A stretch of DNA of 60,919 bases from Dehalococcoidales bacterium (GCA_034430375.1 DAOUER010000038.1:1-60919), one strand, 5' to 3'; shown: positions 1 through 57,958, counted from the stretch's first letter. Numbers and translations: made by a program. The notes: generated from the sequence alone by a model not told the origin.

Positions 1-1028
1 GGCACTCTGATTCTAAACGAGCCGCCTCTCTTATCACGCAGCCACCCTTCAACGGTTTGTTTGTCTTCAATACGATATTGCAGTAATAACAGGGGCGGTA
101 TCTGAGGATTGGATGAATAGTATTGTTTAACGAAACTACCGATAATCTGGCTAGGTTCTTCGTCGCGGGTGCCCTGGAGCAGGAAGCCTTCTCGACCGGT
201 AAGCCGGTTGTTGCGTACGAACAATACCTGTACGAAGGCCTTATCGCCGTCCTGGACAAAAGCGATAACGTCCTGTTCTCCCCGTATCGTTGCTGCAATC
301 CGCTCTCCTTCGATAACCTCCTCCATCGCCTGTGTCTGGTCTCTTAACAAGGCTGCTTTTTCGTAGTCCATGTTTTTTGACGCCTGGTCCATCCTGGACC
401 TGATTTCCTTGATAACCTTATCCCGTTTCCCTTCAAGGAACATGGTCACTTCTTTGATTACCTGGTCGTATTCAGCCTTGCTGACATTACCGGTACACGG
501 CGCCAGGCAATGACCGAGGTAGAATTCAAGACATCCTCGTTTCTTGGTACCTGTCAGCTGTTTCTTACAGACTCTGAAAGGGAAGAGTCGCTGTAAAACA
601 CGCAGGGTGTTTTTTACCGATACAGCGCTGGCAAACGGTCCGAAATAACGTCCGCCGTCCTGCTCTATACGGCGTGTCCGGTATACCCGGGGCCATTCAT
701 CCTGGATATCTATTTTCAGGTAGGGATAAGTCTTATCATCTTTGAGCCGTATATTATAACGCGGTCGGTACTGCTTGATAAAATTCAATTCCAGTACCAG
801 AGCTTCCTGCTCTGAAGTAGCGATAAAAAAGTCGATATCCGCTATTTGTGAGACGAGTTGCACCGTTTTAGGAGATAGTTTGGGTGATTCGCTGAAATAG
901 GACCGGACTCTATTGTGTAGATTGATAGCTTTCCCAACATAAAGGATATTACCGGCCTGGTCCCTCATCAGGTATACCCCGGGACGATGCGGTACCCTGT
1001 TAAGTTGTTCTTTTACCAGTCGGTTCAC
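1..1028 (-). CDS. uvrC: Excinuclease ABC subunit C (3' part runs off the window start)
   Basis: Manual translation of the minus strand from GTG at 1028 gives VNRLVKEQLNRVPHRPGVYLMRDQAGNILYVGKAINLHNRVRSYF, the GIY-YIG N-terminus of UvrC. Not in the ORF track because it is truncated. Confidence 0.95.
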   Translation of the reverse strand, partial: MNRLVKEQLNRVPHRPGVYLMRDQAGNILYVGKAINLHNRVRSYFSESPKLSPKTVQLVSQIADIDFFIATSEQEALVLELNFIKQYRPRYNIRLKDDKTYPYLKIDIQDEWPRVYRTRRIEQDGGRYFGPFASAVSVKNTLRVLQRLFPFRVCKKQLTGTKKRGCLEFYLGHCLAPCTGNVSKAEYDQVIKEVTMFLEGKRDKVIKEIRSRMDQASKNMDYEKAALLRDQTQAMEEVIEGERIAATIRGEQDVIAFVQDGDKAFVQVLFVRNNRLTGREGFLLQGTRDEEPSQIIGSFVKQYYSSNPQIPPLLLLQYRIEDKQTVEGWLRDKRGGSFRIRV

Positions 1029-5768: not shown

Positions 5769-7484
5769 TCACACGACTATTTTATCGTCTTTTACGGCAT
5801 CTCCGGTCTCGATTTTATGCCGTGACCCAGATATTACGGTAATTTCTTCAACATCAGATAATAGGCTGGAGAGCACCTTTTCCCGGGGATTGATGTGGGG
5901 AGGTTTCAGATGGGCCAGGTCGGCCCCTTCCGCCTGTCGTTGTGTCATATATTTACGAAAAGTACCCTTGGGTAAAAGACGAATATCCAGGCTGAAACCG
6001 ACCATATCCATAAGGTCATGATGCACCGCCGATTTAGCGAATTCATCACTATCTGGATGGATTAGTTGTTCGTAAATACTTGAGGTAATATCCTTTTCAA
6101 TTACAGCATTATTATCCTTGAGTTCTAAAACAAGGTTTAGTTTTAGTTGCCCCGGTTCTCTATAAGCTATCCAATCTTCATAGGAAATACCTGCTTTTTC
6201 CAGTGCCTGCCAGATAACTTTTTCAGAAAGCCTGATTACGTTAAAGTCAATAATATCATCAACTCTACGTTCAAAGACCATTTGCGGTAATTTTACACCC
6301 GTTTTCTCATTATCCAGTGATGTTATTTTTATCATGTCCCCAATTCTATATCTGACCAGCGCGCCGCCATGGAAATTGGTAAGAACGATTTCATAATTTT
6401 CACCCGGAGTAACTTCATCAAGTAAGAGAGTTTTAAGTTGATAGCTCTGATCCATGACCCATTTCAGGTGTTCTTCTTCCGGTATAAATTCGTACAGATT
6501 AAGATTGGGAATGAAAGTCATACCGTCATAATCCCAGGTTTGCGTGGCCATGACGCCGCCTTCAGTGCTGGAATATATATCCAGGGGATTTCTCCCCCAT
6601 GACTCCCTTATCTTATCTTTATATACAAAGCTGTCCAGCCCACTGCTGATAATACCTTTTAGTGTCCAGAGGTCTTTCGGCAATAATTGCCTTTTGGCAA
6701 TTTTGCTTTTTATGAATCCCTTTACAAGACGTACCAACGATCTGGGCTTGGTGAGATAAGGAAGAATATCAATCTTCCCTGATGATTCCTTGAATTTCTC
6801 ACCTACCGAGGCAAGGACCAGGGAAAGTCCAAAGAAGTAGTCTAAACCCTCAGACATAGCCTGCTTAAATCCGAGCCTGATCCTTTCTTCAAAGGAAAGC
6901 TCTTCGGATTCTTCTAAACCAGGCATATATTTTAAAGGTGTTTGCTGTCTTAATATATCGGCAAATGCTCCTGATACGTAAGGCCGACGGGCTACAGAGT
7001 ACAATATCTTGATATTATCAGGAATCCTGGACGTATCACCCCAGTGATTACAGCAAGATAACAAGCCTACGCCGTATAATACCTGACTCAACTCTCGCGA
7101 ATATTCGGTAGTTATCGGCACCCACTTACAGGCATATTCCCCGGTCTTGCCCGAACTGTGAATCCAAAATTCAGGTTTTACAGGCAGTAAATCTTCCCGT
7201 TTTTCTTCTAGTTCCGGAAGGTAGTCTTCATAATTAGTTAGTGGTACCTGTTCGCGAAACTCTTCAAGTGTTCGGGGTTGAGCTCCCTTCATAATTTTCT
7301 TACCCAGTTCAGAGTTATTCAATAATTCCAGCTGTTCTTCCAGCAACCTTTTCTGGACTTCCATGAACTGGTTGATATCTAACTTTAGATAGCCGCAGCA
7401 CATCTGCCATAGCTCTTCGGTTTTTCCCTGGCGTAACAGTTCAATGGCTGTAGACAATAAGAACCTCCCTAGCCTTCTTGCCAT
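5769..7484 (-). CDS. GH3-family acyl-adenylate-forming enzyme
   Basis: GH3 motifs: FREQVPLTNYEDY, HSSGKTG..KWVP, YSSTEGG, YRIGD. Confidence 0.85.
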   Translation of the reverse strand: MARRLGRFLLSTAIELLRQGKTEELWQMCCGYLKLDINQFMEVQKRLLEEQLELLNNSELGKKIMKGAQPRTLEEFREQVPLTNYEDYLPELEEKREDLLPVKPEFWIHSSGKTGEYACKWVPITTEYSRELSQVLYGVGLLSCCNHWGDTSRIPDNIKILYSVARRPYVSGAFADILRQQTPLKYMPGLEESEELSFEERIRLGFKQAMSEGLDYFFGLSLVLASVGEKFKESSGKIDILPYLTKPRSLVRLVKGFIKSKIAKRQLLPKDLWTLKGIISSGLDSFVYKDKIRESWGRNPLDIYSSTEGGVMATQTWDYDGMTFIPNLNLYEFIPEEEHLKWVMDQSYQLKTLLLDEVTPGENYEIVLTNFHGGALVRYRIGDMIKITSLDNEKTGVKLPQMVFERRVDDIIDFNVIRLSEKVIWQALEKAGISYEDWIAYREPGQLKLNLVLELKDNNAVIEKDITSSIYEQLIHPDSDEFAKSAVHHDLMDMVGFSLDIRLLPKGTFRKYMTQRQAEGADLAHLKPPHINPREKVLSSLLSDVEEITVISGSRHKIETGDAVKDDKIVV

Positions 7485-45568: not shown

Positions 45569-45700
45569 ATAATCGACTCCCGGTACGCTTTATTCTCTGG
45601 TTTTAAGACGTGAATATTATAACACAGGTCAACACCGCATTTAGGTATTTAGGGGATTCGTAAATAGTAAAAATGTTTAGAAAATGGTACGGGTGGTTTT

Positions 45701-46288
45701 CTACCAAATATACTCGTATATACCGAAGACAATTGTGACGATAGCACTGGCCAGCAACGCCCCGGTAAATACCTGGGCCGGGGTATGCAGCTTCATCTCT
45801 ATCCTCGCCCAGGCTACCAGCGGAACCAGCAGTACCGTCCAGGCCGCCATTCCACCGTAGACGATGATTAACACCGTCACCGAGCCGGTGATAAAAGCGG
45901 TATGCAGGCTGATTTTCCAGAAAAGGTTGATAGCCATGAATACTATCACGGTCGCCAGCCCGGCGGCGAACGTAGCTACTAATAACTCCGGCGCATTCAG
46001 CACCACGAGAACGATATAGCCGAGAACGGCACAACAGATGGCTAATATATAAATTCTGTGTCTTTGCTGACGGGGATGTATAAATATACCGTCGAGTTTT
46101 TTCTTGGAAACCAGGTATATCACCACTGCAAAGACAGGAAATACGCTCAGGGCCAGGCCAATTAACGACCATTTAACAGCTTCATCCGTAGAGGTTGTCG
46201 ATTCCATGGCGAGGAGAACGAGAATTATCAGACTCAACAGAAAAGGATTGAGAATATTGGTGGCTATCCTGGCTAGTCTTCGTTTCAT
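45701..46288 (-). CDS. PAP2-like multi-pass membrane protein
   Basis: KISLH, WAR...HT pattern; start moved to ATG 46288. Confidence 0.7.
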   Translation of the reverse strand: MKRRLARIATNILNPFLLSLIILVLLAMESTTSTDEAVKWSLIGLALSVFPVFAVVIYLVSKKKLDGIFIHPRQQRHRIYILAICCAVLGYIVLVVLNAPELLVATFAAGLATVIVFMAINLFWKISLHTAFITGSVTVLIIVYGGMAAWTVLLVPLVAWARIEMKLHTPAQVFTGALLASAIVTIVFGIYEYIW

Positions 46289-46371
46289 AAGCGTATCAGT
46301 ACACGACATTTTACCACATGATATAATAGGAATTGAATTTACCGGGTAATCTAATACCGGAGAATAAGAAT

Positions 46372-47013
46372 ATGACAACGATAATTAACGACGAAGACAT
46401 CCGTATCGATAAGCTTCAGCTGGGACCTTACGGTACCAATTGCTATACCGTAGTCTGTAACCAGACCCGGGAAAGCCTGGTGATAGATGCTCCCGCCGAA
46501 AGTGAAATAATAATGGGTAATTTGAAGGGCACTAATCCAAAGTACATCTTCCTCACTCACGACCATATGGACCATACCGGGGCGCTGGAGGCATTAAGGG
46601 GCGGACTGGGCGTACCCCTGGCTGCCCACACTCTGGATTCCAGGAGTATCTCTCCCCCGCCCGAGATATTTCTGAATGACGGCGACGCTTTGGCGGTGGG
46701 GAATCTCGATTTCAAGGTATTGCATACCCCCGGTCATACGCCGGGCGGGCTGTGTTTACTTTGGGGATTGCACCTGTTCTCCGGTGATACGCTTTTCCCG
46801 GGGGGTCCAGGCCGGACATGGTCACCGGACGCATTCCACCAGATTATCGATTCGTTAAACAATAAAGTATTCGTCCTGCCTGAAGAAACCCGGATATATC
46901 CCGGGCATGGTGAAATAACGGTTCTCAAGAAAGAAAAAGGAGAGTTCTCTGTTTTCACTTCCCGTGAGCATAGTCCCGATTTATGCGGCGACATTCTCTG
47001 GCTGACTTCCTAG
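46372..47013 (+). CDS. MBL-fold metallo-hydrolase
   Basis: THDHMDH, HTPGHT, SGDTLFPGG, YPGHG. Confidence 0.9.
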   Translation: MTTIINDEDIRIDKLQLGPYGTNCYTVVCNQTRESLVIDAPAESEIIMGNLKGTNPKYIFLTHDHMDHTGALEALRGGLGVPLAAHTLDSRSISPPPEIFLNDGDALAVGNLDFKVLHTPGHTPGGLCLLWGLHLFSGDTLFPGGPGRTWSPDAFHQIIDSLNNKVFVLPEETRIYPGHGEITVLKKEKGEFSVFTSREHSPDLCGDILWLTS

Positions 47014-47025
47014 TCTATTAGACTG

Positions 47026-47727
47026 TTAGTATCTCATCTGGATACGGTGAAAGGCTTCCCCCAGTTCATAATCCTGGTCTTCGGCCATCATCTTAGCCCA
47101 GTCCCGTAACCGGTCTCTCATTTCCAGGGGTATATCACCTACCTGGCTGATATGGCAGCCCAGGGCTTTTATCTTGATATCGAATGTATCGGTAACATCA
47201 GAGTAATGATTGGCGTCATCGGCACCCCACAGCCACACCTCCCTGACCTTATGCGGCTCCAGTCCTTCTTCCAGCAGGTCCGGGTATGATAAATGGTCGC
47301 GGGCATAGGGAAAGACCGCATCCATCACCACCTGGCCGGTAACACGGTGGTCGCGGTGCCACATGTATTTCCGGTACGGATTGGCCGTCACCACTACCTC
47401 CGGCCGGTACTGCCGTATCAAACGCACCAGGGCTTTACGAAACTCCGGTGTATCTTCCAGTCCCTGGTCCGGTAAACGCATAAACTCTACTTTGGTTACT
47501 CCCAATAGCCTGGCCGCATTCAACTGCTCTTTTTCCCTGATTTTAGCCAGTTCTTCCGGCTTCATATTACGGTCGCTGGTCCCCTTATCTCCGTTGGTAC
47601 AAACTACATATACTACTTTTTTACCCTCCCGCGTCAGCTTGACGACCGTACCGGCTACACCGAATTCGGCGTCATCCGGGTGCGGTGTAACGACCATCAT
47701 ATAAATGTCATTCTCCATTACAGGCAT
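47026..47727 (-). CDS. PIG-L family deacetylase (MshB/BshB-like)
   Basis: PHPDDAEFG, TNGDKG, HRDH; ATG 47727 follows a GAGGAG RBS. Confidence 0.88.
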   Translation of the reverse strand: MPVMENDIYMMVVTPHPDDAEFGVAGTVVKLTREGKKVVYVVCTNGDKGTSDRNMKPEELAKIREKEQLNAARLLGVTKVEFMRLPDQGLEDTPEFRKALVRLIRQYRPEVVVTANPYRKYMWHRDHRVTGQVVMDAVFPYARDHLSYPDLLEEGLEPHKVREVWLWGADDANHYSDVTDTFDIKIKALGCHISQVGDIPLEMRDRLRDWAKMMAEDQDYELGEAFHRIQMRY

Positions 47728-47755
47728 AACTCCTCGATATATCGGTGGACACATA

Positions 47756-47765
47756 AATTGTATAA
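47756..47765 (+). repeat. attL core AATTGTATAA
   Basis: Identical to 54311-54320; followed by the inner arm ...AATTGCACACGT. Confidence 0.88.
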
Positions 47766-47886
47766 AATTGCACACGTAGAATTCAAGCAAAAATGTATGA
47801 ATTATGACAAGATAATCCAGGGTCGCAAAAAGTTAGCTCAGGGAGAACTCAAGGGTGAGCTATCGTTGGCAGGAATTACAGCATGA
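47756..47886 (+). pseudogene. Detached 3' end of the integrase gene (40-aa tail, rejoined on excision)
   Basis: After the att core the frame reads KIAHVEFKQKCMNYDKIIQGRKKLAQGELKGELSLAGITA* and is in frame with integrase codons L431-Y432. Confidence 0.75.
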
Positions 47887-47990
47887 GGAGATTCGACCCC
47901 ATCAATGACGATATGCCCGGTCAGGAAGACGATGACGAAGATGAACCATGGTATTACTCGATAACTAAAACATCGCATATTTCCATCTGA
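47883..47990 (+). CDS. 35-aa acidic peptide coupled (ATGA overlap) to the stop of the circular-form integrase
   Basis: Manual translation MRRFDPINDDMPGQEDDDEDEPWYYSITKTSHISI*; AGGA upstream. Confidence 0.45.
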   Translation: MRRFDPINDDMPGQEDDDEDEPWYYSITKTSHISI

Positions 47991-48020
47991 GGAGCAGCAA
48001 AAATAGTCCCTGAATATATA

Positions 48021-48050
48021 TTGACAAAGAGCAAGTGTCATAGGTAAAAT
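48021..48050 (+). promoter_or_regulatory. Element promoter with overlapping operator-like inverted repeat
   Basis: TTGACA (48021) - 18 bp - TAAAAT (48045); TGACA-N9-TGTCA at 48022-48040. Confidence 0.65.
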
Positions 48051-48102
48051 TAAGAGAATAGACGCAAGACATTAAAAAAATAATAAGCGACCCACTTCTA
48101 AG

Positions 48103-48137
48103 TCCGGTAGCCGATGGCAAAGCTACCGGATTTTTTT
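48103..48137 (+). terminator. Intrinsic terminator between promoter and first element ORF
   Basis: TCCGGTAGC-10 nt-GCTACCGGA followed by T7. Confidence 0.8.
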
Positions 48138-48151
48138 ATTAGGGAGGAATA

Positions 48152-48337
48152 ATGCAGAATACGCAGAATATCAGGTCAGGAAGCAGAAGGGCAATCAAAA
48201 ATGGCACTGGCATCATAGTTTGTCTACCGCAGAAGTTCGTGAAAATGGCTGGTATCCAGCGGGGTGACCGGCTGGGCATTGTCTATGATGCCAGGAGCAT
48301 CACGTTCGTAAGTCGGCCTAAACCAGAGGGGAATTAG
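48152..48337 (+). CDS. AbrB/MazE/SpoVT-like DNA-binding protein
   Basis: GIIVCLPQKFVKMAGIQRGDRLGIVYD swapped-hairpin pattern; GGGAGG RBS. Confidence 0.75.
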   Translation: MQNTQNIRSGSRRAIKNGTGIIVCLPQKFVKMAGIQRGDRLGIVYDARSITFVSRPKPEGN

Positions 48338-48338
48338 C

Positions 48339-49259
48339 ATGGCTAAAAAATATGGAAACGGCGGATATCTCTACGAGGGGGATGAGCTAATGAAAATGCA
48401 ATCTGACCAGGAATGGGTCTGTAGAAACTGGATACCAAGAACCGGTAGGACATTGCTGATAGCGCAATCCAAGGTTGGCAAAACCAAGTTGGCGGTGTTT
48501 ATCGCCGATAAGGTAGCCAGGGGTGAGGACGTTTTTAACTTTGATACGGAAAAGGGTGTTGTCCTGTACGCAGCGTTGGAGCGGTGGAACGACTTCAGGG
48601 AGAAGCTACGTGACGCAACCGGTGGTAAAGTGCCGTCTAATCTCAAGACTCTTGAATACACCGAACCCCTAGTACTAGACAGTGATGATGATAAGGGATT
48701 TAACATTCTAAAACAAGTGATTTTTGATGTAAAGCCGGTGTTGGTTATCCTCGACTCGAAATTCCGAACTACAGCCAAAGGCGATAACGATGAGCCAGCT
48801 ACGATTATCTGGACTAATCGTATCAATAAGCTCATCAAAGATTGTGACTGCGCCTTCCTTATCCTGCACCACGTGCCCAAAACGAAATATAAGCAACTCG
48901 TGGACCGGGCAGCAGGTACGTCTTATCTATCCCGGTGGGCTGATGTTATTATCGGCATGAAAAGGGCTGACGAAAAAGACAAAAGGAACCCTGACCGCAT
49001 ATTGGAATTCGTCAGCAATTCCGGATATGAACCAGACGATATCACGGTTGAAATCACCGACGTCGGAATTGTTGAAACCATCATCGACCCACTGCAATTA
49101 CTGCAGACGGCTAAGGTGTTAGATGCAGTGGATTTACTGAAAAATGCCCTGCAAAAAGACTGCAAACTCAAGCCAAGTAAAACCATCAGGGAGCTATCAA
49201 AACTGCACAAGATAAGCGAAAGGACGTTCTGGGAGGCGTGGAAGTATGTTAAACCTTAA
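48339..49259 (+). CDS. AAA/RecA-fold (RepA-like) replicative helicase with C-terminal HTH-like region
   Basis: Walker A AQSKVGKT, VLYAALE, LVILDS (Walker B), LILHH, GTSYLSRWAD. Confidence 0.82.
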   Translation: MAKKYGNGGYLYEGDELMKMQSDQEWVCRNWIPRTGRTLLIAQSKVGKTKLAVFIADKVARGEDVFNFDTEKGVVLYAALERWNDFREKLRDATGGKVPSNLKTLEYTEPLVLDSDDDKGFNILKQVIFDVKPVLVILDSKFRTTAKGDNDEPATIIWTNRINKLIKDCDCAFLILHHVPKTKYKQLVDRAAGTSYLSRWADVIIGMKRADEKDKRNPDRILEFVSNSGYEPDDITVEITDVGIVETIIDPLQLLQTAKVLDAVDLLKNALQKDCKLKPSKTIRELSKLHKISERTFWEAWKYVKP

Positions 49260-49345
49260 TATATATATATATATATATTATATATTTGCAGTATGCAGTG
49301 ATGCAGTGTTTACAGTAGTGCAGTAGTGATTACTGCAACACTGCA
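49256..49345. repeat. Candidate replication origin: 32-bp pure A/T tract plus TGCAGT hexamer array
   Basis: A/T only from 49256 to 49287; TGCAGT at 49287, 49294, 49302, 49319, variant TACAGT at 49311, inverted ACTGCA at 49332 and 49340. Confidence 0.65.
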
Positions 49346-49367
49346 ATGGTTTAAGGGGGGTAAAGGT

Positions 49368-49439
49368 ATGATTGAAAACTGGACAATAATTGGAATGATA
49401 TTTTTACAGATTTTCTTAAAACTAGGGGGTGTAACATGA
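49368..49439 (+). CDS. 23-aa hydrophobic peptide
   Basis: MIENWTIIGMIFLQIFLKLGGVT*; G-rich RBS; ATGA overlap with the next ORF. Confidence 0.45.
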   Translation: MIENWTIIGMIFLQIFLKLGGVT

Positions 49440-49618
49440 GTGGATTAAAGGTAGGTGCAAATTGTTTTTTCAAATACCAGGTGAATGACGGCACCCGAAT
49501 TTTGGATTGTAGCGGAACAATCAACAAAGACCTGGAAGACCGCTATATTTTGCGGGATAGCAACAAGAAATCAAAGGTGCTCTGGAAAGATAAAATTGTG
49601 GAGGTAGTTATATTATGA
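49436..49618 (+). CDS. Hypothetical 60-aa beta-rich protein
   Basis: GGGGGT RBS; start and stop coupled to neighbours on both sides. Confidence 0.6.
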   Translation: MSGLKVGANCFFKYQVNDGTRILDCSGTINKDLEDRYILRDSNKKSKVLWKDKIVEVVIL

Positions 49619-50517
49619 AGCTATTTAAGCGGAAGAAGAAAGAGAGAGGAAGCTACAGGACAGCTGCTGACAAACTGAAGGAAGAACGAGCAAAAATCGA
49701 CATTACCCTGGCTAGGGCATTTCAAGAGGATTTGCGAACCCACCCATCTTTCACTCGCGAAATCGCCAGGAGGAAATTTGGTTTAGCTGGGCTGGAACAG
49801 GACAATGATCACTATGACGCTACACCGGTACAGCCGGACATCATGGAACTTATCCAACAATTCAGAGAAATCAAAACTGCTTTCCAGGAGGAATTCCCGG
49901 AAAAATCTGGCTCTTGGTTACAGGAAATAGCTGCCATTGCCCCAGCCATCATTGGAGCGTTAAAAGAAATGCGCCCACAGCAATCGCCACAACAACCGGA
50001 ATATTACCCGGCACCATCACAGCGACTCACTTCTACACAACCCAAGCGTATTGAGAGAACACAGGAGCCACCACCGGAACCACCACAATCGACACCGGAA
50101 CAGCCCGAACAACCCGGCACACCACAGCAAACAGAACTTGATACCACTGTTTATCAGCCAGACATCGAAGAAGCCTCTTTGGATGAGGTGAAAAATTTCG
50201 TGGAGAATATATTAGCGTTGACCCCTGAGGAAGCTACCGCCGAATTATACCTGGGCAGTAATATTGAGGGTGATTTTAGGGCTACCATCTGGCAATACCT
50301 TAGCGAAAACGACATTGACTCGCTCTGGAAACAATTACCACTGTTGGAATCGCTACCAGAGGTCGAGAAATTCAGCCCCATTATCGCTAAATTAACCAAC
50401 GACAAGACTAAAATCTGGCTATCGTTGGTTATCGATGAAATAAATCTGGTTAATTCTGGTGAAAAGACTATTGAAATTAGCGAAAATCAACCTGGAAATG
50501 ATGTTAATAACGCGTGA
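49615..50517 (+). CDS. Hypothetical 300-aa protein: basic N-terminus, amphipathic helix, Pro/Gln linker, acidic helical C-terminus
   Basis: GGAGG RBS; long ORF; no family recognised. Confidence 0.75.
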   Translation: MKLFKRKKKERGSYRTAADKLKEERAKIDITLARAFQEDLRTHPSFTREIARRKFGLAGLEQDNDHYDATPVQPDIMELIQQFREIKTAFQEEFPEKSGSWLQEIAAIAPAIIGALKEMRPQQSPQQPEYYPAPSQRLTSTQPKRIERTQEPPPEPPQSTPEQPEQPGTPQQTELDTTVYQPDIEEASLDEVKNFVENILALTPEEATAELYLGSNIEGDFRATIWQYLSENDIDSLWKQLPLLESLPEVEKFSPIIAKLTNDKTKIWLSLVIDEINLVNSGEKTIEISENQPGNDVNNA

Positions 50518-50618
50518 AAGTGGTTACAGGCGTGTTTTAAGCAAATCCACAATATATAATGAGGATTACGGAGTGCCGGAGGCACGGAGTAATCCGATTA
50601 TCGAAAATAGGAGGTACC

Positions 50619-50909
50619 ATGCCAAATTGTCCATATTGTAAGGAATGGCTACTGACTGAAGATACGCTGGAGGCTCATATTCGGGAAAAGCATTCTGACC
50701 TGATACCAGATGCCGAAAGACTGATGTCGGCCTACGCCGGTACACTCACCAAGCCAATCGTGTCAGCCATTTTACTGGGCATTAGCTTGAAATATAAAGC
50801 TGAGCCCAGCGAGGTTATTTTCCAATATTTGGAGATGTTAGGAATGCTCGACCACCTTGGGGCTGATGTGGACGATGTCCTTGAGGATGAGGGGGAGTCA
50901 GAAGAATAA
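50619..50909 (+). CDS. C2H2 zinc-finger protein
   Basis: AGGAGG RBS; CPYC-x12-H-x4-H; acidic tail. Confidence 0.75.
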   Translation: MPNCPYCKEWLLTEDTLEAHIREKHSDLIPDAERLMSAYAGTLTKPIVSAILLGISLKYKAEPSEVIFQYLEMLGMLDHLGADVDDVLEDEGESEE

Positions 50910-50989
50910 CATTGGTTGCGGGGACATGCATAAATTGCCCCTGAGGGTGGGCTTGAGGTAAAAATTGTCAATGTGATGAGTAAATAAAA

Positions 50990-51019
50990 TGTCCGGGGCT
51001 TCCAGTCCAACCCCGGACA
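50990..51019 (-). terminator. Hairpin between convergent element genes
   Basis: TGTCCGGGG-12 nt-CCCCGGACA with a T-rich tail on the minus strand. Confidence 0.65.
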
Positions 51020-51044
51020 CAGCTACAATGTGGCTTAGTCTGGA

Positions 51045-51521
51045 CTACGAGCCAGGAGCGGTGCCACCCTCGCAGGCTATCAGTGTGATAACCAAACCTT
51101 CGACGTCACCACCGATAGCATCGGCGTCAATAGCCAGGGTGACTTCTTTATCTTGGGCACCATCCGGAGCAAAGGAAGAAATCAGAAGTTTATCGATAGT
51201 TGGGTCTTCGAAGTCTCCAAGGTCTGGCCCCCACATCCAAGCGGACACGACATTCTCAGGGTCAGTTAATCGCGCGTACAAACTGACGTTGGCGTTCCCA
51301 GTGTTCGTGACTGAAATTGTTACCATGGCAGTTTCACCACCGGGGTCGGCATCACCGAAATCAATCACAGCTGGAATGACCTCGATACTTCCGATTGTAT
51401 TAATGTGTAAACTACTTGGAACCTCGGTAGAAAACAATGTGGCGGCTAATACTCCACCGCCAATCAGTAATGCCCCAATGATGGCGAAGATGAATATTTG
51501 CCTGAAAATAGACTTGAACAT
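51045..51521 (-). CDS. Exported or membrane-anchored acidic beta-sandwich protein
   Basis: GGGAGG RBS before ATG 51521; signal/TM IFIFAIIGALLIGGGVLAA; IDFGDADPGG...TISVTNTGNANVSL Ig-like pattern. Confidence 0.75.
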   Translation of the reverse strand: MFKSIFRQIFIFAIIGALLIGGGVLAATLFSTEVPSSLHINTIGSIEVIPAVIDFGDADPGGETAMVTISVTNTGNANVSLYARLTDPENVVSAWMWGPDLGDFEDPTIDKLLISSFAPDGAQDKEVTLAIDADAIGGDVEGLVITLIACEGGTAPGS

Positions 51522-51645
51522 ATTTGACCTCCCGTTTTGATTTATCGATTGAGCTGACTGGCGCACAATCATTTTATATTATGGTAACCAGTCTCAAAAA
51601 TCAAGCCAATTGGCGAAAATAGTGCGCACAATGAGCCATTTGTCC

Positions 51646-51674
51646 TTGACAATGGGTATTATTCTGTGATAATT
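51646..51674 (+). promoter_or_regulatory. Promoter of the xis/membrane-protein/int operon
   Basis: TTGACA followed about 17 bp later by GATAAT, upstream of a GGAGG RBS and ATG 51717. Coordinates approximate. Confidence 0.55.
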
Positions 51675-51716
51675 TATTATATGGCAGACACACATTCAAA
51701 CAGCGGAGGTCAAGAT

Positions 51717-51911
51717 ATGGAGTCCAAATTGCGCACTTTTGTAACAGTGGAACAAGCATCAAGAATCTTGGATGTGCATCCACAGACAGTGAGAAATTGG
51801 TACCGCCTAGGGTTAATCAGGAAGCTACAGCCAAATCCAAATGGCGGTAAAGTTTTTCTCCGATATAGCGATGTTCTTGAGCTTGTGGGGGGAGAATACG
51901 AAGATGAATAA
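51717..51911 (+). CDS. Excisionase-like MerR-type HTH protein
   Basis: VTVEQASRILDVHPQTVRNWYRLGLI...KVFLRYSDV. Confidence 0.85.
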   Translation: MESKLRTFVTVEQASRILDVHPQTVRNWYRLGLIRKLQPNPNGGKVFLRYSDVLELVGGEYEDE

Positions 51912-52149
51912 ACTCGGAGGAAGCCTTCAGCAACGGTCAACAACATCGACTGTAAGCGCATACAAAGGGCGCGGTGGCTTATATTCCCATACGCGTCGCC
52001 TCCAAGTGGGCAACAAAAAATTCGTGCGTACGGTCGATTGCGCACGGAGCTCTTATGCATTTTCAGTTGCCTTAAATTTAGTTGGTGAAGGGGCGGAGTT
52101 TTTGCCTCCTCCGCCCCAACCACCAGGGAGTAAAGATGAAGTTAGATAA
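51904..52149 (+). CDS. Hypothetical 81-aa basic protein
   Basis: ATG overlaps the xis stop; GGGGGAG RBS; stop overlaps the next start region. Confidence 0.5.
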   Translation: MNKLGGSLQQRSTTSTVSAYKGRGGLYSHTRRLQVGNKKFVRTVDCARSSYAFSVALNLVGEGAEFLPPPPQPPGSKDEVR

Positions 52150-52567
52150 ACTACTTACATTATTAATAGTAATAGCAGTTGGCTATTTGCTATATCGAGA
52201 AATCCAGCGCAATAAAAGTAATACCACGCAGATAGCCGGCACAGGAAGCGAAGGGAACCCAGTAAAGCTGGAATTGGAAATGGGTAGCTCACCATTCGCT
52301 CAGACATTCACAGTAAAGTCTGTGCCGAAACGATTCCCGGTTGCCAAGCCTACCAACGGTGAGTTAATGATTTCGACAGCCATAACCAATGCTGGCGACG
52401 TTTATATCGCTGATAGCTACGGAAGTGCTGAAGCTGGCATTCATCGATTTATGATTGAAGCTGGGAATCTCATAAATCTGGGCGTCACCAACCTTGCCGA
52501 CTGGTATTATTACGGAACTGCTGACGATATCTTCTCCATAGCTGGAGAAGTGGAAAATTTCGCCTAA
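52136..52567 (+). CDS. N-terminally membrane-anchored beta-rich protein
   Basis: GGGAG RBS; TM LLTLLIVIAVGYLLY, then a Gly/aromatic beta-rich domain. Confidence 0.75.
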   Translation: MKLDKLLTLLIVIAVGYLLYREIQRNKSNTTQIAGTGSEGNPVKLELEMGSSPFAQTFTVKSVPKRFPVAKPTNGELMISTAITNAGDVYIADSYGSAEAGIHRFMIEAGNLINLGVTNLADWYYYGTADDIFSIAGEVENFA

Positions 52568-52579
52568 AGGAGGGACAAC

Positions 52580-52966
52580 ATGGAAGGATATTTAGACAAT
52601 CCATACGAGGGATATTTAGACAATCCATACTATGATGAGGAATTGATATTGGATGAACCAAAGCCGAAGCGGAGACGCAAAAGCGCTCCCACAACGGAGA
52701 TTAGCCTCTCTGCATTGGTGTTGGTGGGCTTAGTTGGTTTATTAATCTGGTTCAAGCACACCCGGGGCATCTACCCCTGGCAAACGGAAATCGCCAGACG
52801 GTCTATCAGACCGGCTCTCGGCCCGGCTAGCAAAATGGGAATCAGACCAAACACCAGTGGCCACCCGATGAAATCACCAACTCAGGTTGGCATGGTAACT
52901 AACGTTCCCACTGACGTTAGGCCGGGTCATGGTGAGACTGATATATATCCAATCTCACCTTGGTAA
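52580..52966 (+). CDS. Single-pass membrane protein with tandem EGYLDNPY repeat
   Basis: GGAGGG RBS; EGYLDNPY twice; KPKRRRK; TM LSALVLVGLVGLLIWF. Confidence 0.75.
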   Translation: MEGYLDNPYEGYLDNPYYDEELILDEPKPKRRRKSAPTTEISLSALVLVGLVGLLIWFKHTRGIYPWQTEIARRSIRPALGPASKMGIRPNTSGHPMKSPTQVGMVTNVPTDVRPGHGETDIYPISPW

Positions 52967-53022
52967 CTAAAATTGATAACTAAAATTAACCAGGAGCAAT
53001 TTATCATAATGGAGGAAAAAAA

Positions 53023-54345
53023 ATGAAAGCACCAACCAAAACACACCAAGATTTCGATGTGGAAACACCATCCACCCTCAGACAATTCCTGGTCGAAGAA
53101 CTAAGCACCAACAACCAGGAACGCGTAAGGCGTAATCTGCCAATCGAACACTACAATGACGAAGACATCAACCAGCTAATGCCGAAGGTGTTCGCTCACA
53201 TTGAATCCAAAGCTTTGGAGCTATACAAATCTAACGAACCCTGGGCAATCAGGGAATATATCGTCCAACACATCTTGAGAGAACCCGTTGCCAGCGAAGA
53301 CAATATCAGGGTAGCCGGTGAAATATCCAAGCCCGTCGAACGGTGGCAAAGTGATACATTCGACCCGCTACAGCAAATGCGCCTCAAGCTGGAAGTCAGT
53401 CGCAAATCACGTGGATACATCAGGGAGCTAATGCGTCCGGCGAAATGGTTCGTTTCCGATGCTGGTCGCAAGAGGCGCTACACTGAGAATGAGATACTGC
53501 AATTTGTCAGGAAGCTGGCAAATAGATATGACAAGAGGGATGCGAAAGGCCACATCATAACTGAGGGCAGAGACACTAGTTCATTCGTCACCAAAATTTC
53601 TCAATTCAAACGATTCCTGGACTTACTACCGGAAGATGAGCTAACTGGCAGAAAGCAGGTTATCCCCTTTGAATTACCCAAGCTCCCCGATAAATTCAAT
53701 CAGCCAATATTCTCGCATGAAGATATCGAGCTAATCATCTACAAGGCCATCATGGATTTTAAGCCAGAGACGGTTTTACGCATGGCGTTAGCTACTGTCT
53801 ATGGCTGTCGAGTTGGTGAAATTGCATACATGGATTCCAGCAATATTGACTTGAAAACCATGACAGTGAATATCCCCACTGAAAAGAAGGGAGTGCGCAA
53901 GCCTCAGCCAATCCCGCCATCACTAAAGCCCCTATTCATGGTGCCACTGCATAAAACCAGAGACGCAAACATCAATAACCAACTGAAAGCCATCTGTAAG
54001 AAAGCCCGGATACCCTGGCTAAAAGGAATGGGCTGTCACGCCATCCGGCGAGCAGTCGTGACCATATTATATGGTGAAACTGGACTGAAAGAACTGCACA
54101 TCAAACGCTTCATGCGATGGTCTCAAGGCAGAGGTATGGGCGTCATGCCTCGATATATCAGGATACCAACTGAAACGACAGATGCTGAAGTGCTTGAAGT
54201 CCACCCATTCCGGAAAATGTGGGAGCAGATGATACCCTTCATTGAATACATGCCACAATGGGCTGACGCACGTTACCTTCCGGAGTGGAAGGATATAAGC
54301 TCACGTGTGCAATTGTATAACATTACCCAAATTGATACAATGTGA
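53023..54345 (+). CDS. Tyrosine recombinase/integrase of the element (integrated form, 440 aa)
   Basis: YGCRVGEI (R), TEKK (K), HAIRR (HxxR), RFMRWS (W in place of the second H), MPRYI (Y); the att core lies in its last codons. Confidence 0.9.
   Translation: MKAPTKTHQDFDVETPSTLRQFLVEELSTNNQERVRRNLPIEHYNDEDINQLMPKVFAHIESKALELYKSNEPWAIREYIVQHILREPVASEDNIRVAGEISKPVERWQSDTFDPLQQMRLKLEVSRKSRGYIRELMRPAKWFVSDAGRKRRYTENEILQFVRKLANRYDKRDAKGHIITEGRDTSSFVTKISQFKRFLDLLPEDELTGRKQVIPFELPKLPDKFNQPIFSHEDIELIIYKAIMDFKPETVLRMALATVYGCRVGEIAYMDSSNIDLKTMTVNIPTEKKGVRKPQPIPPSLKPLFMVPLHKTRDANINNQLKAICKKARIPWLKGMGCHAIRRAVVTILYGETGLKELHIKRFMRWSQGRGMGVMPRYIRIPTETTDAEVLEVHPFRKMWEQMIPFIEYMPQWADARYLPEWKDISSRVQLYNITQIDTM
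54311..54320 (+). repeat. attR core AATTGTATAA
   Basis: Identical to 47756-47765; preceded by the inner arm ACGTGTGC. Confidence 0.88.
54313..54341 (+). promoter_or_regulatory. Sigma70-type promoter of the mshD-like gene, overlapping attR
   Basis: TTGTAT (54313) - 17 bp - TACAAT (54336). Confidence 0.55.
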
Positions 54346-54368
54346 ACGGGAGACTACAACCACCTGCC

Positions 54369-55286
54369 ATGTCAGATACCGGATACAGCATCAGGAATTA
54401 CAGGCCGGAAGATTTTGATGGATATGTCCTTCTCTGCCAGGAATCTAATGAACTGGGACCTTCCGGACACCCGGCTTCGCCGGAAATAGCCCGAAAATGG
54501 CTGTCCTGGCCTTATTACTCACCGGAAAAGGACCTGTTCCTCCTGAAGAAGGACGGCGAATTAATCGGGAGCCTCGATCTACGCCCCGAACCGGATATCA
54601 ATCGCGTCATTATCAGGTGCTGGGTACACCCCGAGTACCGGCGACAGGGCCTTGGGAATCAACTCTTCGAACGCGCCTTCCAGCGTGCCGTTGAACTCGG
54701 GGTTGAATATATTAACATCAATGTACCCGGCAACAACAACGTTGCCAGAATCGTCCTGTCCCGATACGGATTCAAACCCATTCGTCGTTATCTTGATTTG
54801 AAACTCGATATACTCAAGATAAACAGTAAAGATATCGATAATGCATCCCGTGAATGCCGATGCCTGGAAAGCGGCGAGGAAAATGAACTGTCGCGTGTGC
54901 AAAACCTGGCCTTTGACGGACACTGGGGCTATCATCCCAATACCCCGGAAACAATAGCTTTCTATACTCAGTTAGGTACACCGACGACGGATAATATCAT
55001 CCTCTCCTGCGAAGAAGACAAGATAGTCGGCTACTGCTGGGTGGAAATACTACCCGGTGATGAACCTGCCGGGGAAATCCACATGATAGGTGCCGACCCG
55101 GCATACCAGGGCCAAGGAATCGGCCGGAAGGTCCTGCTGGCCGGATTGGCCTATCTCCGGGAAAAGGGGATATCAACGGCTTATCTAAGCGTGGACAGCG
55201 AGAATAAATCGGCACTCAACCTGTATGATTCGCTGGGATTTGAGCTACACCGTAAAACCCTCTGGTACGAAAAGAAGGTATCTTAA
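54369..55286 (+). CDS. Tandem-GNAT acetyltransferase, MshD-like
   Basis: Two GNAT repeats; EIHMIGADPAYQGQGIG, YLSVDSENKSALNLYDSLGF. ORF track start is GTG 54342. Confidence 0.8.
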   Translation: MSDTGYSIRNYRPEDFDGYVLLCQESNELGPSGHPASPEIARKWLSWPYYSPEKDLFLLKKDGELIGSLDLRPEPDINRVIIRCWVHPEYRRQGLGNQLFERAFQRAVELGVEYININVPGNNNVARIVLSRYGFKPIRRYLDLKLDILKINSKDIDNASRECRCLESGEENELSRVQNLAFDGHWGYHPNTPETIAFYTQLGTPTTDNIILSCEEDKIVGYCWVEILPGDEPAGEIHMIGADPAYQGQGIGRKVLLAGLAYLREKGISTAYLSVDSENKSALNLYDSLGFELHRKTLWYEKKVS

Positions 55287-56560
55287 GCTACCGGGGTCAT
55301 CTTCTTATTAACTTCCCGGAATAATTCCCGGCTTATCGCGGCGGCGATATTTGCCCAGTTATATTCCCTGACGGATTCTCTTATTATATCTGCCGATACA
55401 CCGTTATTATCTATCTTGTACAGCATGCGGCCTATCTTCCCGGCAAGTTCTGCGGGATTATTATCTTCAACGACATAACCGGTTTCATTCTGTTGGATAA
55501 TTCTACTCATATCCCCGACATCGGTAGCGATTACCGGGGTGCCGCAAGCTAATGATTCCAGGGCTACCAGGCCGAAGCTCTCGTAATGCGATGGCACTAC
55601 ACAGATATCCGCGGCGCGGTAATAGGCCGGTAGGTCACGATGTTGCACGATTCCGAGAAAAGAAACCTTATCTTTCAGTCCCAGTTGTTTCGTCATCGAC
55701 TGCAATCGGATTATGGCGTCCTGGCTGTCCTCATCCCCACCGATCACCACCAGTTTCACCCGGCCCCCGTATTCAAGATACGTTAACGCCTCAATTAACT
55801 GCTCGATACCCTTCAGCGGGTCTATTCGTCCGACAAATAGCAGTGTTTTTTCATCGCTGAGGTTGAGTTTTTGCCTGGCGGCTGTTTTTTCTCCAGGTTT
55901 GAACAGGTCCATATTTACACCGCAGGGAACCACGCCTATTTTACCGGGTTCCGTGCCGTATAGCCGGACGATTTCTTCTTTTTCCTTTTCCGTGGAGGTA
56001 ATAACCCGGTGTAAATCTCGCATCGCTTCCGTCTCGGTGACAATGCGCAGTTCCGGTTCTTCCTCACCGATACCAATATTGTTTTTGATAGCTCCCAGCG
56101 TATGAAACATCCCCACATGGGGTACCTGCCACCAGAGCTGGATGTATTTTCCCACCCAGCAGGAAAGCCAGTAGTGACTGAAGACCACATCGTACTGTAG
56201 GTTATTCAGTTTACGGTAATTCTCCAGGTTGCAGGCAAAATTGGGGAGATAAGAATACAGGGCCAGCTTGTGGATATCTTCTACCTGACCGGCCTTGATA
56301 TGTATCAACCGGGCCCCCTCTCCCAGGTCAACAATCGGCGGGTCGGCGGGATCGTGCATACGGGTAAAAACATCGACCGTATGCCCCTGGGTACACAGTT
56401 CACGGGCCAGTTCCCGGATATAAACGCTCATACCACCGGTATCTTTTGCTCCCAGGTTACCCACCGGGCAACTGTGGACACTCAGCATGGCTATTTTCAG
56501 TTTCTTCGTTTCAATATTCAAAAATATCGCTCCTGGTATCACGTAATACTTACCTGGCAC
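55283..56560 (-). CDS. GT4 glycosyltransferase, MshA-like
   Basis: SVHSCP...DTGGMSVY, DVFTR, HYWLS, FHTLGAIK, PSHYESFGLVALESLACGTPV. Confidence 0.88.
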   Translation of the reverse strand: MPGKYYVIPGAIFLNIETKKLKIAMLSVHSCPVGNLGAKDTGGMSVYIRELARELCTQGHTVDVFTRMHDPADPPIVDLGEGARLIHIKAGQVEDIHKLALYSYLPNFACNLENYRKLNNLQYDVVFSHYWLSCWVGKYIQLWWQVPHVGMFHTLGAIKNNIGIGEEEPELRIVTETEAMRDLHRVITSTEKEKEEIVRLYGTEPGKIGVVPCGVNMDLFKPGEKTAARQKLNLSDEKTLLFVGRIDPLKGIEQLIEALTYLEYGGRVKLVVIGGDEDSQDAIIRLQSMTKQLGLKDKVSFLGIVQHRDLPAYYRAADICVVPSHYESFGLVALESLACGTPVIATDVGDMSRIIQQNETGYVVEDNNPAELAGKIGRMLYKIDNNGVSADIIRESVREYNWANIAAAISRELFREVNKKMTPVA

Positions 56561-57519
56561 CGGTACAGCGGGATTTCCTGTCCGCCCAGATGAAATTTAT
56601 ACGGTTCGTCTCCCTTTAAAAAGTCGAATATCTTTTTCCCCGACTCAATATTCTCTTTGATACAGAGGACCTTACTCAGTAACCCAACGCTTAAATAATT
56701 AAATTCGGGGTCGTAACCGCTGTTATAAAGATATATATTATCATTATAATCAAAGCAGATAATCGATGCCATATCACGCCCGTCCAGTCGGAGGACGCCC
56801 AGCTTTAAAACGCACGCCACCGCCATTACCTCTATCAATAACCTGAAAAAAGACTCCATCTTCGCCGTTAGAAACTCAGCCTTGTCGTCACGACTCTCAG
56901 TAAACATCTTAAAAAAGTTATCGATAAATCCCGGCACATCAGCGGCGTTTTCAGACCAGATATATTCGATATTCCCCGCCTCCGAAAGCCTCCTGAGTTT
57001 TCGCCGTACCTCGTGGCGCTGCCTGGAATTCAGCATACCCAGGTAGGCTTCCCAGTTGTCCGGCAGGTCCATCTCTACGGAAATATCCTGTTGAAAGCAA
57101 TTAACTTCAAGATTACGCTTTTCTGCTATATCCTTTAATTTTGTGTATACCGTAGAGTCGTGTCGGACATGTTTCAGGTCCATCGATTTAACGCCGTTTT
57201 CCCTTAAATCATCTAGCAGAGTCTCGAAGAAAGCGTTTTCGGAACCGGGTTCGATGATAAAATCCTGGTAATCACAGACGTCGGTATCCCCGATGAAGGC
57301 GGCGGCATCATTATCCAATCTCAGCGGCGCTATCCCGATTACCCGGTCACCGTCACGAACGACGCGGATAAATGGCTCCTGATCACCGCCGAACACCTGC
57401 CACCACACCTGCAGCCAGGCCGTGGTAATAAAAACAGAACTCCAATTGAGCTTCAATTGCGGGTCAGACCGGTAGGCTTCCAGGCTGTCTAAGCTTGCTT
57501 CAGTGACAGAATAACTCAT
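56539..57519 (-). CDS. GNAT-fold protein, CelD/BcsL (FemAB-like) type
   Basis: WLQVWW, GIAPL, DYQDFI, ELRRKLRRL-like, YNSGYDP...SVG, FDFLKGDEPYKFHLG. Confidence 0.8.
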   Translation of the reverse strand: MSYSVTEASLDSLEAYRSDPQLKLNWSSVFITTAWLQVWWQVFGGDQEPFIRVVRDGDRVIGIAPLRLDNDAAAFIGDTDVCDYQDFIIEPGSENAFFETLLDDLRENGVKSMDLKHVRHDSTVYTKLKDIAEKRNLEVNCFQQDISVEMDLPDNWEAYLGMLNSRQRHEVRRKLRRLSEAGNIEYIWSENAADVPGFIDNFFKMFTESRDDKAEFLTAKMESFFRLLIEVMAVACVLKLGVLRLDGRDMASIICFDYNDNIYLYNSGYDPEFNYLSVGLLSKVLCIKENIESGKKIFDFLKGDEPYKFHLGGQEIPLYRCQVSIT

Positions 57520-57592: not shown

Positions 57593-57910
57593 TTAGAAAA
57601 GGATGCCCTCGGTTAGATTGGCGGTATAGGTGAATATCTCGATACTCGGTTCTCCTTCACAGATATCCAGGACGGTGGTCTTGTATTCCACCGATTTCAG
57701 GTAGTCTTCAAATTGTTCCTGTTTTTCCCATATCAGCATAGCCCCCTGCGCGTAAGTAGCCGGGTCCATGATGAAGTGTTTCTCCCTCAGTCCCGGTATT
57801 TTCCGGCAGCCCTCCACTACCTTCCCGATGTGTTCCCGGGCTACCGCCGTATCGCCCAGGGCTTTCTTGACCTCGTCTTTAACCTGAAATTTCACTATTG
57901 TCGCTATCAT
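57593..57910 (-). CDS. Small dimeric alpha/beta-barrel protein (YdhR/monooxygenase-like)
   Basis: GGAGGT RBS; PGLREKHF...GAMLIWE...EDYLKS pattern. Confidence 0.55.
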   Translation of the reverse strand: MIATIVKFQVKDEVKKALGDTAVAREHIGKVVEGCRKIPGLREKHFIMDPATYAQGAMLIWEKQEQFEDYLKSVEYKTTVLDICEGEPSIEIFTYTANLTEGILF

Positions 57911-57958
57911 CGCTACCTCCAAAAGACTATACAGCCATCGACTCTTTTCTTTATCAAA

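Follow-up and report, generated by a model that had tools for sequence, protein, structure and literature searches.

A conserved gene cassette of Dehalococcoidales, interrupted by a mobile element, may direct tRNA-dependent assembly of a mycothiol-like compound

Mycothiol is synthesised in Actinomycetota by Ino1, MshA, MshA2, MshB, MshC and MshD, in the order N-acetylglucosamine (GlcNAc) transfer, dephosphorylation, deacetylation, aminoacylation and N-acetylation; MshC, which attaches cysteine, is an ATP-dependent paralogue of cysteinyl-tRNA synthetase (CysRS). Bacillithiol is made by BshA, a family 4 glycosyltransferase (GT4), the LmbE-type deacetylase BshB and the cysteine-adding enzyme BshC. 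Transferases that take an amino acid from aminoacyl-tRNA and have two fused GCN5-related N-acetyltransferase (GNAT) domains are described from other pathways: FemABX (Weissella viridescens FemX, Staphylococcus aureus FemX and FemA), Orf11/Sba18/Sbb17 of the BD-12 pathway, which carry out Gly-tRNA-dependent aminoacylation of the amino sugar streptothrisamine, and the C-terminal domain of MprF and other aminoacyl-phosphatidylglycerol synthases (aaPGS). The window analysed here, a whole stretch of 60,919 nucleotides (GCA_034430375.1 DAOUER010000038.1:1-60919) from a Dehalococcoidales metagenome-assembled genome (2.09 Mb, 129 contigs, 95.6% complete), carries a group of genes, split by an integrative element, that resembles the thiol pathways and includes a protein whose predicted fold is nearest to that of the aminoacyl-tRNA transferases.

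Gene families were assigned with Pfam and NCBIfam scans of the window. All genes named in the original prediction, which had proposed a mycothiol-like cluster with a FemAB-like GNAT and without MshC, were present and intact:

45701..46288, minus strand: PAP2-like multi-pass membrane protein, weak candidate phosphatase (PAP2 match, E 0.015)
46333..47013, plus strand: metallo-beta-lactamase (MBL)-fold hydrolase of glyoxalase II / YcbL type (PF00753, E 1.2e-20)
47026..47754, minus strand: PIG-L/LmbE de-N-acetylase, MshB/BshB-like (PF02585, E 2.5e-36)
about 47766..54320, no strand: integrative element of 6.56 kb that splits the cassette, its junctions mapped against the uninterrupted locus of a congener (G003)
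54342..55286, plus strand: tandem GNAT, MshD-like N-acetyltransferase (best NCBIfam family, MshD)
55283..56560, minus strand: GT4 glycosyltransferase, MshA-like (MshA model, 320.6 bits, full length)
56539..57519, minus strand: Fem-fold double-GNAT protein (Acetyltransf_6/FemAB_like), candidate aminoacyl-tRNA:GlcN-X aminoacyltransferase, where GlcN is glucosamine (PF13480, E 2e-26)

The locus shares with the mycothiol pathway a GT4 nearest to MshA, an LmbE/PIG-L deacetylase, a tandem GNAT related to MshD, Ino1 and, as we propose, the order of the chemical steps. It differs in that MshC was not found, its place being taken by a transferase of Fem fold that probably depends on tRNA; in that no component reaches its equivalog cut-off; in that the genes form a cluster, where those of Actinomycetota are scattered; and in that the MshD-like gene is optional and the carriers, strict anaerobes, belong to other phyla. 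With bacillithiol synthesis it has in common a GT4, an LmbE deacetylase (BshB1 and BshB2 are the models on which the PIG-L protein reaches its highest scores) and a proposed cysteine-adding step that follows them, but neither BshC (0 of 151 genomes) nor bacilliredoxin was found, and the GT4 reaches 320 bits with MshA versus 108 with BshA. We conclude that the cassette is real, conserved and undescribed; no description of it was found in the literature searched. The chances appear about even that these genes form one biosynthetic cassette, interrupted by a mobile element, for an N-aminoacylated glucosaminyl glycoside built on the mycothiol/bacillithiol plan. Aminoacyl-tRNA-dependent N-aminoacylation of a GlcN glycoside is likely.

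The Fem-fold gene overlaps the GT4 gene by 22 nt and encodes a soluble protein of 326 amino acids (aa). The protein matched PF13480 at 93 bits and PF04339 (FemAB_like) at 28.4 bits (cut-off 27). No match to Pfam FemAB (PF02388) was obtained, and sequence and profile searches against PDB sequences returned nothing meaningful and no solved Fem protein. An AlphaFold2 model of the protein, built from an alignment of 63 homologues, had a predicted local distance difference test score of 97.4, and both Foldseek and VIA-align ranked aminoacyl-tRNA transferases first as its structural relatives, the top matches being S. aureus FemX and FemA, W. viridescens FemX, Sba18/Sbb17 and the MprF/aaPGS domains. 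Aminoacyl-tRNA transferases made up 22 of the 23 best VIA-align rows (Z 16.4-21.3, root-mean-square deviation 3.3-3.9 Å, 260-291 residues aligned), the exception being 2hqy, a DUF2156-type protein of unknown function. Tandem GNATs dependent on coenzyme A (CoA), MshD included, were lower in the same comparison (Z 15.4 or less, 5-7 Å). The two GNAT domains of the model form one cleft, and the alignments with FemX, FemA and Sba18 were nearly whole-length (272-291 residues, Z 19-21).

A 2026 review (PMC12945691) gives three marks of FemX-type enzymes: the double GNAT, a basic helix on domain 2 that binds tRNA, and a catalytic Lys. A basic helix with the pattern KQRHExRRKLRRL, putatively tRNA-binding, is present in domain 2 of our protein (residues 165-181), where K166, R168, H169, R173, K174, R176 and R177 are invariant or nearly so among the 63 homologues. 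In the same set K308, 18 residues before the C-terminus, is invariant and the preceding Y307 nearly so; the pair resembles F304-K305 of W. viridescens FemX and F328-K329 of DhpH, and the alignment ranges (6..326 against 1..325) fit an equivalence of K308 with FemX K305. The protein resembles FemABX in its double GNAT fold (Z 19-21), the domain-2 helix and, putatively, the C-terminal aromatic-Lys pair, while differing from them in lacking a PF02388 or solved-Fem sequence match and a coiled-coil insert. Its acceptor must also differ, as the hosts include Dehalococcoides mccartyi. To our knowledge this organism has no peptidoglycan, which excludes a cell-wall role of the Fem-type enzyme there. 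Orf11/Sba18/Sbb17 share the Fem fold (Z ~21, template modelling (TM) score by target 0.72) and, if our proposal is right, formation of an amide between an aminoacyl-tRNA-derived residue and an amino-sugar amine; they belong, however, to actinomycete secondary metabolism and use glycine, whereas our protein is 12-14% identical to them, lies in a primary-metabolism-like context and has cysteine as its suspected donor residue. The MprF domains have the double-GNAT aminoacyl-tRNA transferase fold as well (Z 16-19), but MprF is membrane-anchored and acts on lipids, while the protein studied here is soluble and has no flippase domain. A second Acetyltransf_6 paralogue (a 352-aa frame) and two tandem DinB_2 genes are also present in the source genome (G000:C122:17541-17933, G000:C103:1110-2221).

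Conservation of the locus was followed in 41 relatives and, across phyla, in the best 80 of more than 592 loci obtained in a scan of species genomes; the 80 are from Dehalococcoidia, Desulfobacterales, Syntrophobacteraceae, Syntrophomonadaceae and other Bacillota, and their families were grouped by open reading frame (ORF) clustering. The Fem-like, GT4 and PIG-L genes were adjacent and collinear in about 27 of the 41 relatives, and in about 14 the tandem GNAT is placed between the last two; distant members of the order have the trio by itself, surrounded by unrelated housekeeping genes (EF-Tu, ArsR, a permease). The 80 loci contained Fem in 76 cases, GT4 in 71, PIG-L in 45, MBL in 26 (from three phyla) and the tandem GNAT in 22, and the Fem-GT4-PIG-L core was syntenic in Dehalococcoidia, Desulfobacterota and Bacillota. 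The arrangement is not due to chance, for its gene order is seen again in about 27 of the 41 relatives and in most of the 80 loci from three phyla. Cultured D. mccartyi carries the trio, because a protein with that species name is 97% identical to the protein of one genome of our set (G033), and closed genomes of Dehalogenimonas size hold the core trio too. The Fem-like GNAT is therefore tightly co-conserved, and translationally coupled, with GT4 across phyla, as the original prediction required of it.

Additional genes at the cassette vary with lineage. Three unrelated phosphatase families alternate there (PAP2 in seven Dehalococcoidia loci, HAD in six loci, His_Phos_1 in five), which fits a required dephosphorylation step, and Ino1 lies inside the cassette in seven of the 80 loci, all of other lineages. 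In 15 Desulfobacterota loci a pair of Gfo/Idh/MocA (IolG-like) dehydrogenases (L042:4256-5983, which has a fused ThuA-like domain, and 5973-6986) is encoded between the S51-CysS_C fusion gene described below and the Fem-like gene, and hints at a modified cyclitol. In seven Bacillota loci a fusion of an acetyl-CoA hydrolase/transferase with a GNAT is encoded upstream of the Fem-like gene (L081:5075-6904); it may provide an alternative N-acylating step. In one relative, on a contig of 1.47 Mb, the order is Fem, GT4, MBL, PAP2-like, and there is no PIG-L gene at the site (L108:6001-9535). A small ABM/YdhR-like ORF (window 57593-57922), between the Fem-like gene and RACo, is kept in several family members and lies outside the cross-phylum cassette.

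The original prediction had noted no cysteine ligase in the window, and scans of it gave no MshC or BshC match. The search was extended to the genome, where the discovery of an mshC or bshC homologue would have undermined the proposal. The sole MshC match (317.7 bits, cut-off 485) was a true CysRS of 456 aa with DALR_2 and CysS_C (cysS model, 542 bits), the only CysRS of the source genome; BshC had no match there or in any of 151 Dehalococcoidia genomes, and the glutamate-cysteine ligase families PF04262 and PF04107 were not found in the source genome. The original statement that no MshC or BshC is in the window held, and neither was found in the 95.6%-complete genome.

The distribution of extra CysRS copies was compared with that of the cassette genes in these 151 genomes, each at least 85% complete. 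A GT4 orthologue was found in 111 of them and a Fem orthologue in 100; the latter count is from a profile search with cleanly bimodal scores (at least 240 or at most 155 bits), an E<=1e-50 threshold having missed 11 divergent orthologues. Two or more CysRS/MshC-like matches were present in 47 genomes, distributed as follows:

GT4 present, Fem absent (seven families): 21 genomes, 21 with an extra CysRS-like copy
GT4 and Fem both present: 90 genomes, 25 with an extra CysRS-like copy
GT4 absent: 40 genomes, 1 with an extra CysRS-like copy

Every GT4-bearing genome has Fem, an extra CysRS-like copy or both. Fisher's test by genome gave p 3e-10, a value that is overstated, as kin are not independent and genome size confounds it. 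The extra copies inspected were ~400 aa long, aligned to CysRS residues 1-395 without the anticodon domain and scored 350-394 bits on the MshC model (for example L111:7250-8449 in G047; also in G081, G120, G101, G046 and G080). They were not clustered with GT4 or PIG-L, which remain adjacent to each other in the Fem-less genomes, and a protein-level search with one of them gave no separation from CysRS. In our reading of the pattern, an MshC-like ligase and the Fem-fold transferase displace one another, which ties the GT4 pathway to cysteine; the truncated CysRS of the Fem-less families may represent an MshC-type route outside Actinomycetota.

A second link to cysteine was found in Desulfobacterota. 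In 20 of the 80 loci, all from this phylum, a gene just upstream of the Fem-like gene encodes a 417-aa fusion of peptidase S51 with CysS_C (S51-CysS_C; L042:2940-4193; also L074:5688-6941, L099:5717-6979), the IolG-like pair, where present, lying between the two. The N-terminal domain folds like peptidase E / cyanophycinase, of the Ser-His-Glu type (TM score by target 0.7-0.82), and the final ~100 residues match the portion of CysRS that binds the anticodon, at its C-terminus (PF23493, 29 bits, above the cut-off). This tail corresponds to positions 359-464 of the cysS model, and the best structural match other than S51 proteins was the E. coli CysRS-tRNACys complex, 1u0b. A stand-alone S51 paralogue is additionally present at some Desulfobacterota loci.

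The GT4 protein, at 320.6 bits, misses the MshA equivalog cut-off (TIGR03449, 462.5 bits), yet MshA is by far its best family. Its matches in PDB were sucrose-phosphate synthase TeSPS (6kih, 236 bits) and Corynebacterium glutamicum MshA (CgMshA; 3c48, 229 bits), both of which use phosphorylated acceptors, and it conserves the equivalents of MshA K78, Y110, H133, T134 and R154, the phosphate-binding residues being kept. Ino1, which would supply the acceptor, was detected in the source genome with PF01658 (130.9 bits, G000:C73); PF07994 proved unfit for this purpose, since it also missed the C. glutamicum control. In D. mccartyi the trio lies directly beside genes for tRNA-Thr, tRNA-Tyr, tRNA-Thr and EF-Tu (L020:5145-9798), with Ino1 ~15 kb away, and Ino1 was detected as an expressed protein in a proteome study of strain CBDB1 (PMC7918482).

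The PIG-L protein keeps the LmbE metal motifs PHPDD and HRDH. It misses the MshB equivalog (TIGR03445; 39.4 bits, cut-off 224) and scores 103.8 bits, below the cut-off, on the BshB1 model. Its longer ORF is 47026-47790 on the minus strand, and since relatives align from residue 13 of that frame, the true start is probably the ATG at 47754. The tandem GNAT misses the MshD equivalog as well (TIGR03448; 106.9 bits, cut-off 163.1); its best PDB match is the mycothiol synthase of Mycobacterium tuberculosis (2c27, E 7.5e-14), and each of its two domains contains an R/Q-x-x-G-x-G motif. The nearest solved relatives of the MBL hydrolase are hydroxyacylglutathione hydrolases and YcbL, including 2xf4 and 7l0b, and the GloB equivalog TIGR03413 was missed at 92.3 bits (cut-off 200.8). 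MshD as the best solved relative of the tandem GNAT, together with the glyoxalase II relatives of the MBL protein, hints at a thiol.

The MBL and PAP2-like genes do adjoin the cluster, the real frame of the latter being 45701-46288 on the minus strand. The open frame is 45701-46378, and start 46288 was picked to fit orthologues of 195 aa; ORF 45603-46172(-) was rejected as the wrong frame, since its translation was implausible and matched no family. The PAP2 match covers residues 156-223 and includes an R-x5-H-x3-Q motif; the gene is syntenic within the family, and one orthologue (L027:11210-11824) matches PAP2 at E 2.9e-5. The suggestion that this protein is an MshA2-type phosphatase gains from the HAD or histidine phosphatases that occupy its place in other lineages and loses from the weak match, the integral membrane nature of the protein and its restriction to Dehalococcoidia.

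The integrative element contains an AAA_25 protein (48339-49259) and a tyrosine integrase (53023-54345), both identified by domain scan, and lies in a ~40-bp divergent region between the starts of the PIG-L and tandem-GNAT genes. The 10-bp direct repeat AATTGTATAA is found at both of its ends (47756-47765 and 54311-54320). It is missing from relatives, which carry the four genes contiguously; the locus of G003 aligns to window 47769->47524 and 54633->54311 and is contiguous across both junctions, so that removal of the element restores the cluster, as had been predicted. The left repeat stops one base short of the likely PIG-L ATG, and the integrase ORF continues past the right repeat into the host sequence, where it shares 4 nt with the tandem-GNAT gene at its GTG start. 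Because of these two contacts, the insertion may have rewired expression of both flanking genes. Promoter and terminator scans gave results at chance level.

From these data we infer a pathway in which donor, acceptor, amino acid and tRNA dependence are the proposed parts. The MshA-like GT4 would transfer GlcNAc, presumably from UDP-GlcNAc, to a phosphorylated acceptor, most likely myo-inositol-1-phosphate made by Ino1. A phosphatase would then take off the phosphate: here maybe the PAP2-like protein, elsewhere maybe a HAD or histidine phosphatase. The PIG-L enzyme would strip the N-acetyl group, and the Fem-fold double-GNAT protein, replacing ATP-dependent MshC, would acylate the freed amine from an aminoacyl-tRNA, most likely Cys-tRNACys. 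Where present, as in the window, the MshD-like tandem GNAT would N-acetylate the cysteine to give mycothiol or a close analogue, and thioesters of the resulting thiol would be the substrates of the GloB-like hydrolase. The original interpretation is partly supported, each of its predictions that was put to the test having been borne out. In the form in which it was originally put forward, as a tRNA-dependent cysteinylation step, the role of the Fem-like GNAT draws on the fold, the CysRS-domain neighbour in Desulfobacterota and the extra-CysRS pattern, while its amino acid, tRNA dependence and acceptor stay at the level of proposal. That cysteine is the amino acid, and a mycothiol-like thiol the product, we regard as an evenly balanced proposition; tRNA-dependent cysteinylation of GlcN-inositol is, with an equal measure of doubt and belief, the best reading of the locus.

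Several observations weigh against this reading. All MSH and BSH equivalog cut-offs are missed. The equivalence of K308 with FemX K305 is based on position, not on residue-level superposition, and the relatives of the protein within PF13480 include the crotonyl-CoA user BspF (a weak NCBIfam match, 39.7 bits), so that CoA users exist within its sequence family. GT4 is about equally near sucrose-phosphate synthase and CgMshA, and N25 of MshA is replaced by Ser; for this reason a different phosphorylated polyol or sugar could serve as acceptor. Nearly all members of the order have Ino1 (39 of 41 relatives), cassette or not, which makes it permissive rather than diagnostic. The candidate phosphatase, an integral membrane protein, matches its family weakly. 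The genome yielded neither bacilliredoxin (PF06491) nor MDMPI_N, and its two DinB_2 genes are uninformative; tRNA scans of 82 loci revealed no tRNA-Cys gene near any of them. The S51-CysS_C fusion was not found in the source genome and is confined to its 20 Desulfobacterota loci. Finally, both kinship and genome size confound the phyletic test, and the 25 of 90 Fem-bearing genomes that also hold an extra CysRS-like copy indicate that the two are not mutually exclusive and not strictly redundant.

The same pathway logic could operate with an amino acid other than cysteine (Gly, Ala or Ser), to give, instead of a thiol, an aminoacyl-GlcN-inositol or related glycoside serving as a compatible solute or as an envelope or glycolipid head group. 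Fold and synteny back the use of aminoacyl-tRNA and are silent on which amino acid is carried, and the nearest amino-sugar precedent, Orf11/Sba18/Sbb17, uses Gly-tRNA; the missing thiol-specific partners and the lack of the CysS_C fusion in the source genome and 60 of the 80 loci point the same way. We nevertheless consider this alternative rather unlikely, since extra CysRS-like copies are almost confined to genomes with this GT4 and occur in every one of these that lacks Fem, a CysRS anticodon domain is found beside Fem in Desulfobacterota, MshD-like and glyoxalase-II-like genes are co-located, and the genome yielded no other route to a small thiol.

It is improbable that the GNAT is a CelD/BcsL- or BspF-like acyl-CoA acyltransferase which N-acylates GlcN-X for a glycolipid or polysaccharide precursor. 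Membership in Acetyltransf_6, annotated as CelD/BcsL in source databases, and the BspF match speak for such an enzyme. Yet the structure is nearer to aminoacyl-tRNA transferases than to any CoA-dependent tandem GNAT, no Q/R-x-x-G-x-G/A CoA pyrophosphate loop was seen in the sequence, and the basic helix and aromatic-Lys motif are conserved; a protein with a tRNA-anticodon domain adjoins the Fem-like gene in 20 loci, and the conserved core includes no membrane or lipid genes.

Slightly less probable still is that another, unrecognised enzyme attaches cysteine and the Fem-fold protein has another task, such as addition of a second residue or modification of the product. The coexistence of an MshC-like truncated CysRS with Fem in 25 of 90 Dehalococcoidia genomes speaks for this, but the remaining 65, the source genome included, have a single CysRS and neither BshC nor MshC was found in them, and the minimal conserved unit is just Fem, GT4 and PIG-L. 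That the genes belong to separate pathways and are neighbours through inherited synteny only is very improbable: within the family, synteny does extend over the entire region between RNase J and acyl-CoA dehydrogenase, but the trio persists in different neighbourhoods in three phyla, with Fem and GT4 reading frames adjacent or overlapping.

The cassette is a candidate route to the small thiol of many anaerobes. We propose tentatively, and at somewhat less than an even chance, that mycothiol or desacetyl-mycothiol (Cys-GlcN-Ins) is made by Dehalococcoidia, D. mccartyi among them, by many Desulfobacterota and by some Bacillota, with cysteine provided from Cys-tRNACys by the Fem-fold transferase. 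If this is true, the product would be the first redox cofactor whose synthesis depends on tRNA, and the missing small thiol of these anaerobes would be identified. Mycothiol-type chemistry would extend beyond Actinomycetota, a primary-metabolic role would be added to those of Fem-type transferases, and the replacement of an ATP-dependent CysRS paralogue by an aminoacyl-tRNA transferase would be a clear case of non-orthologous displacement.

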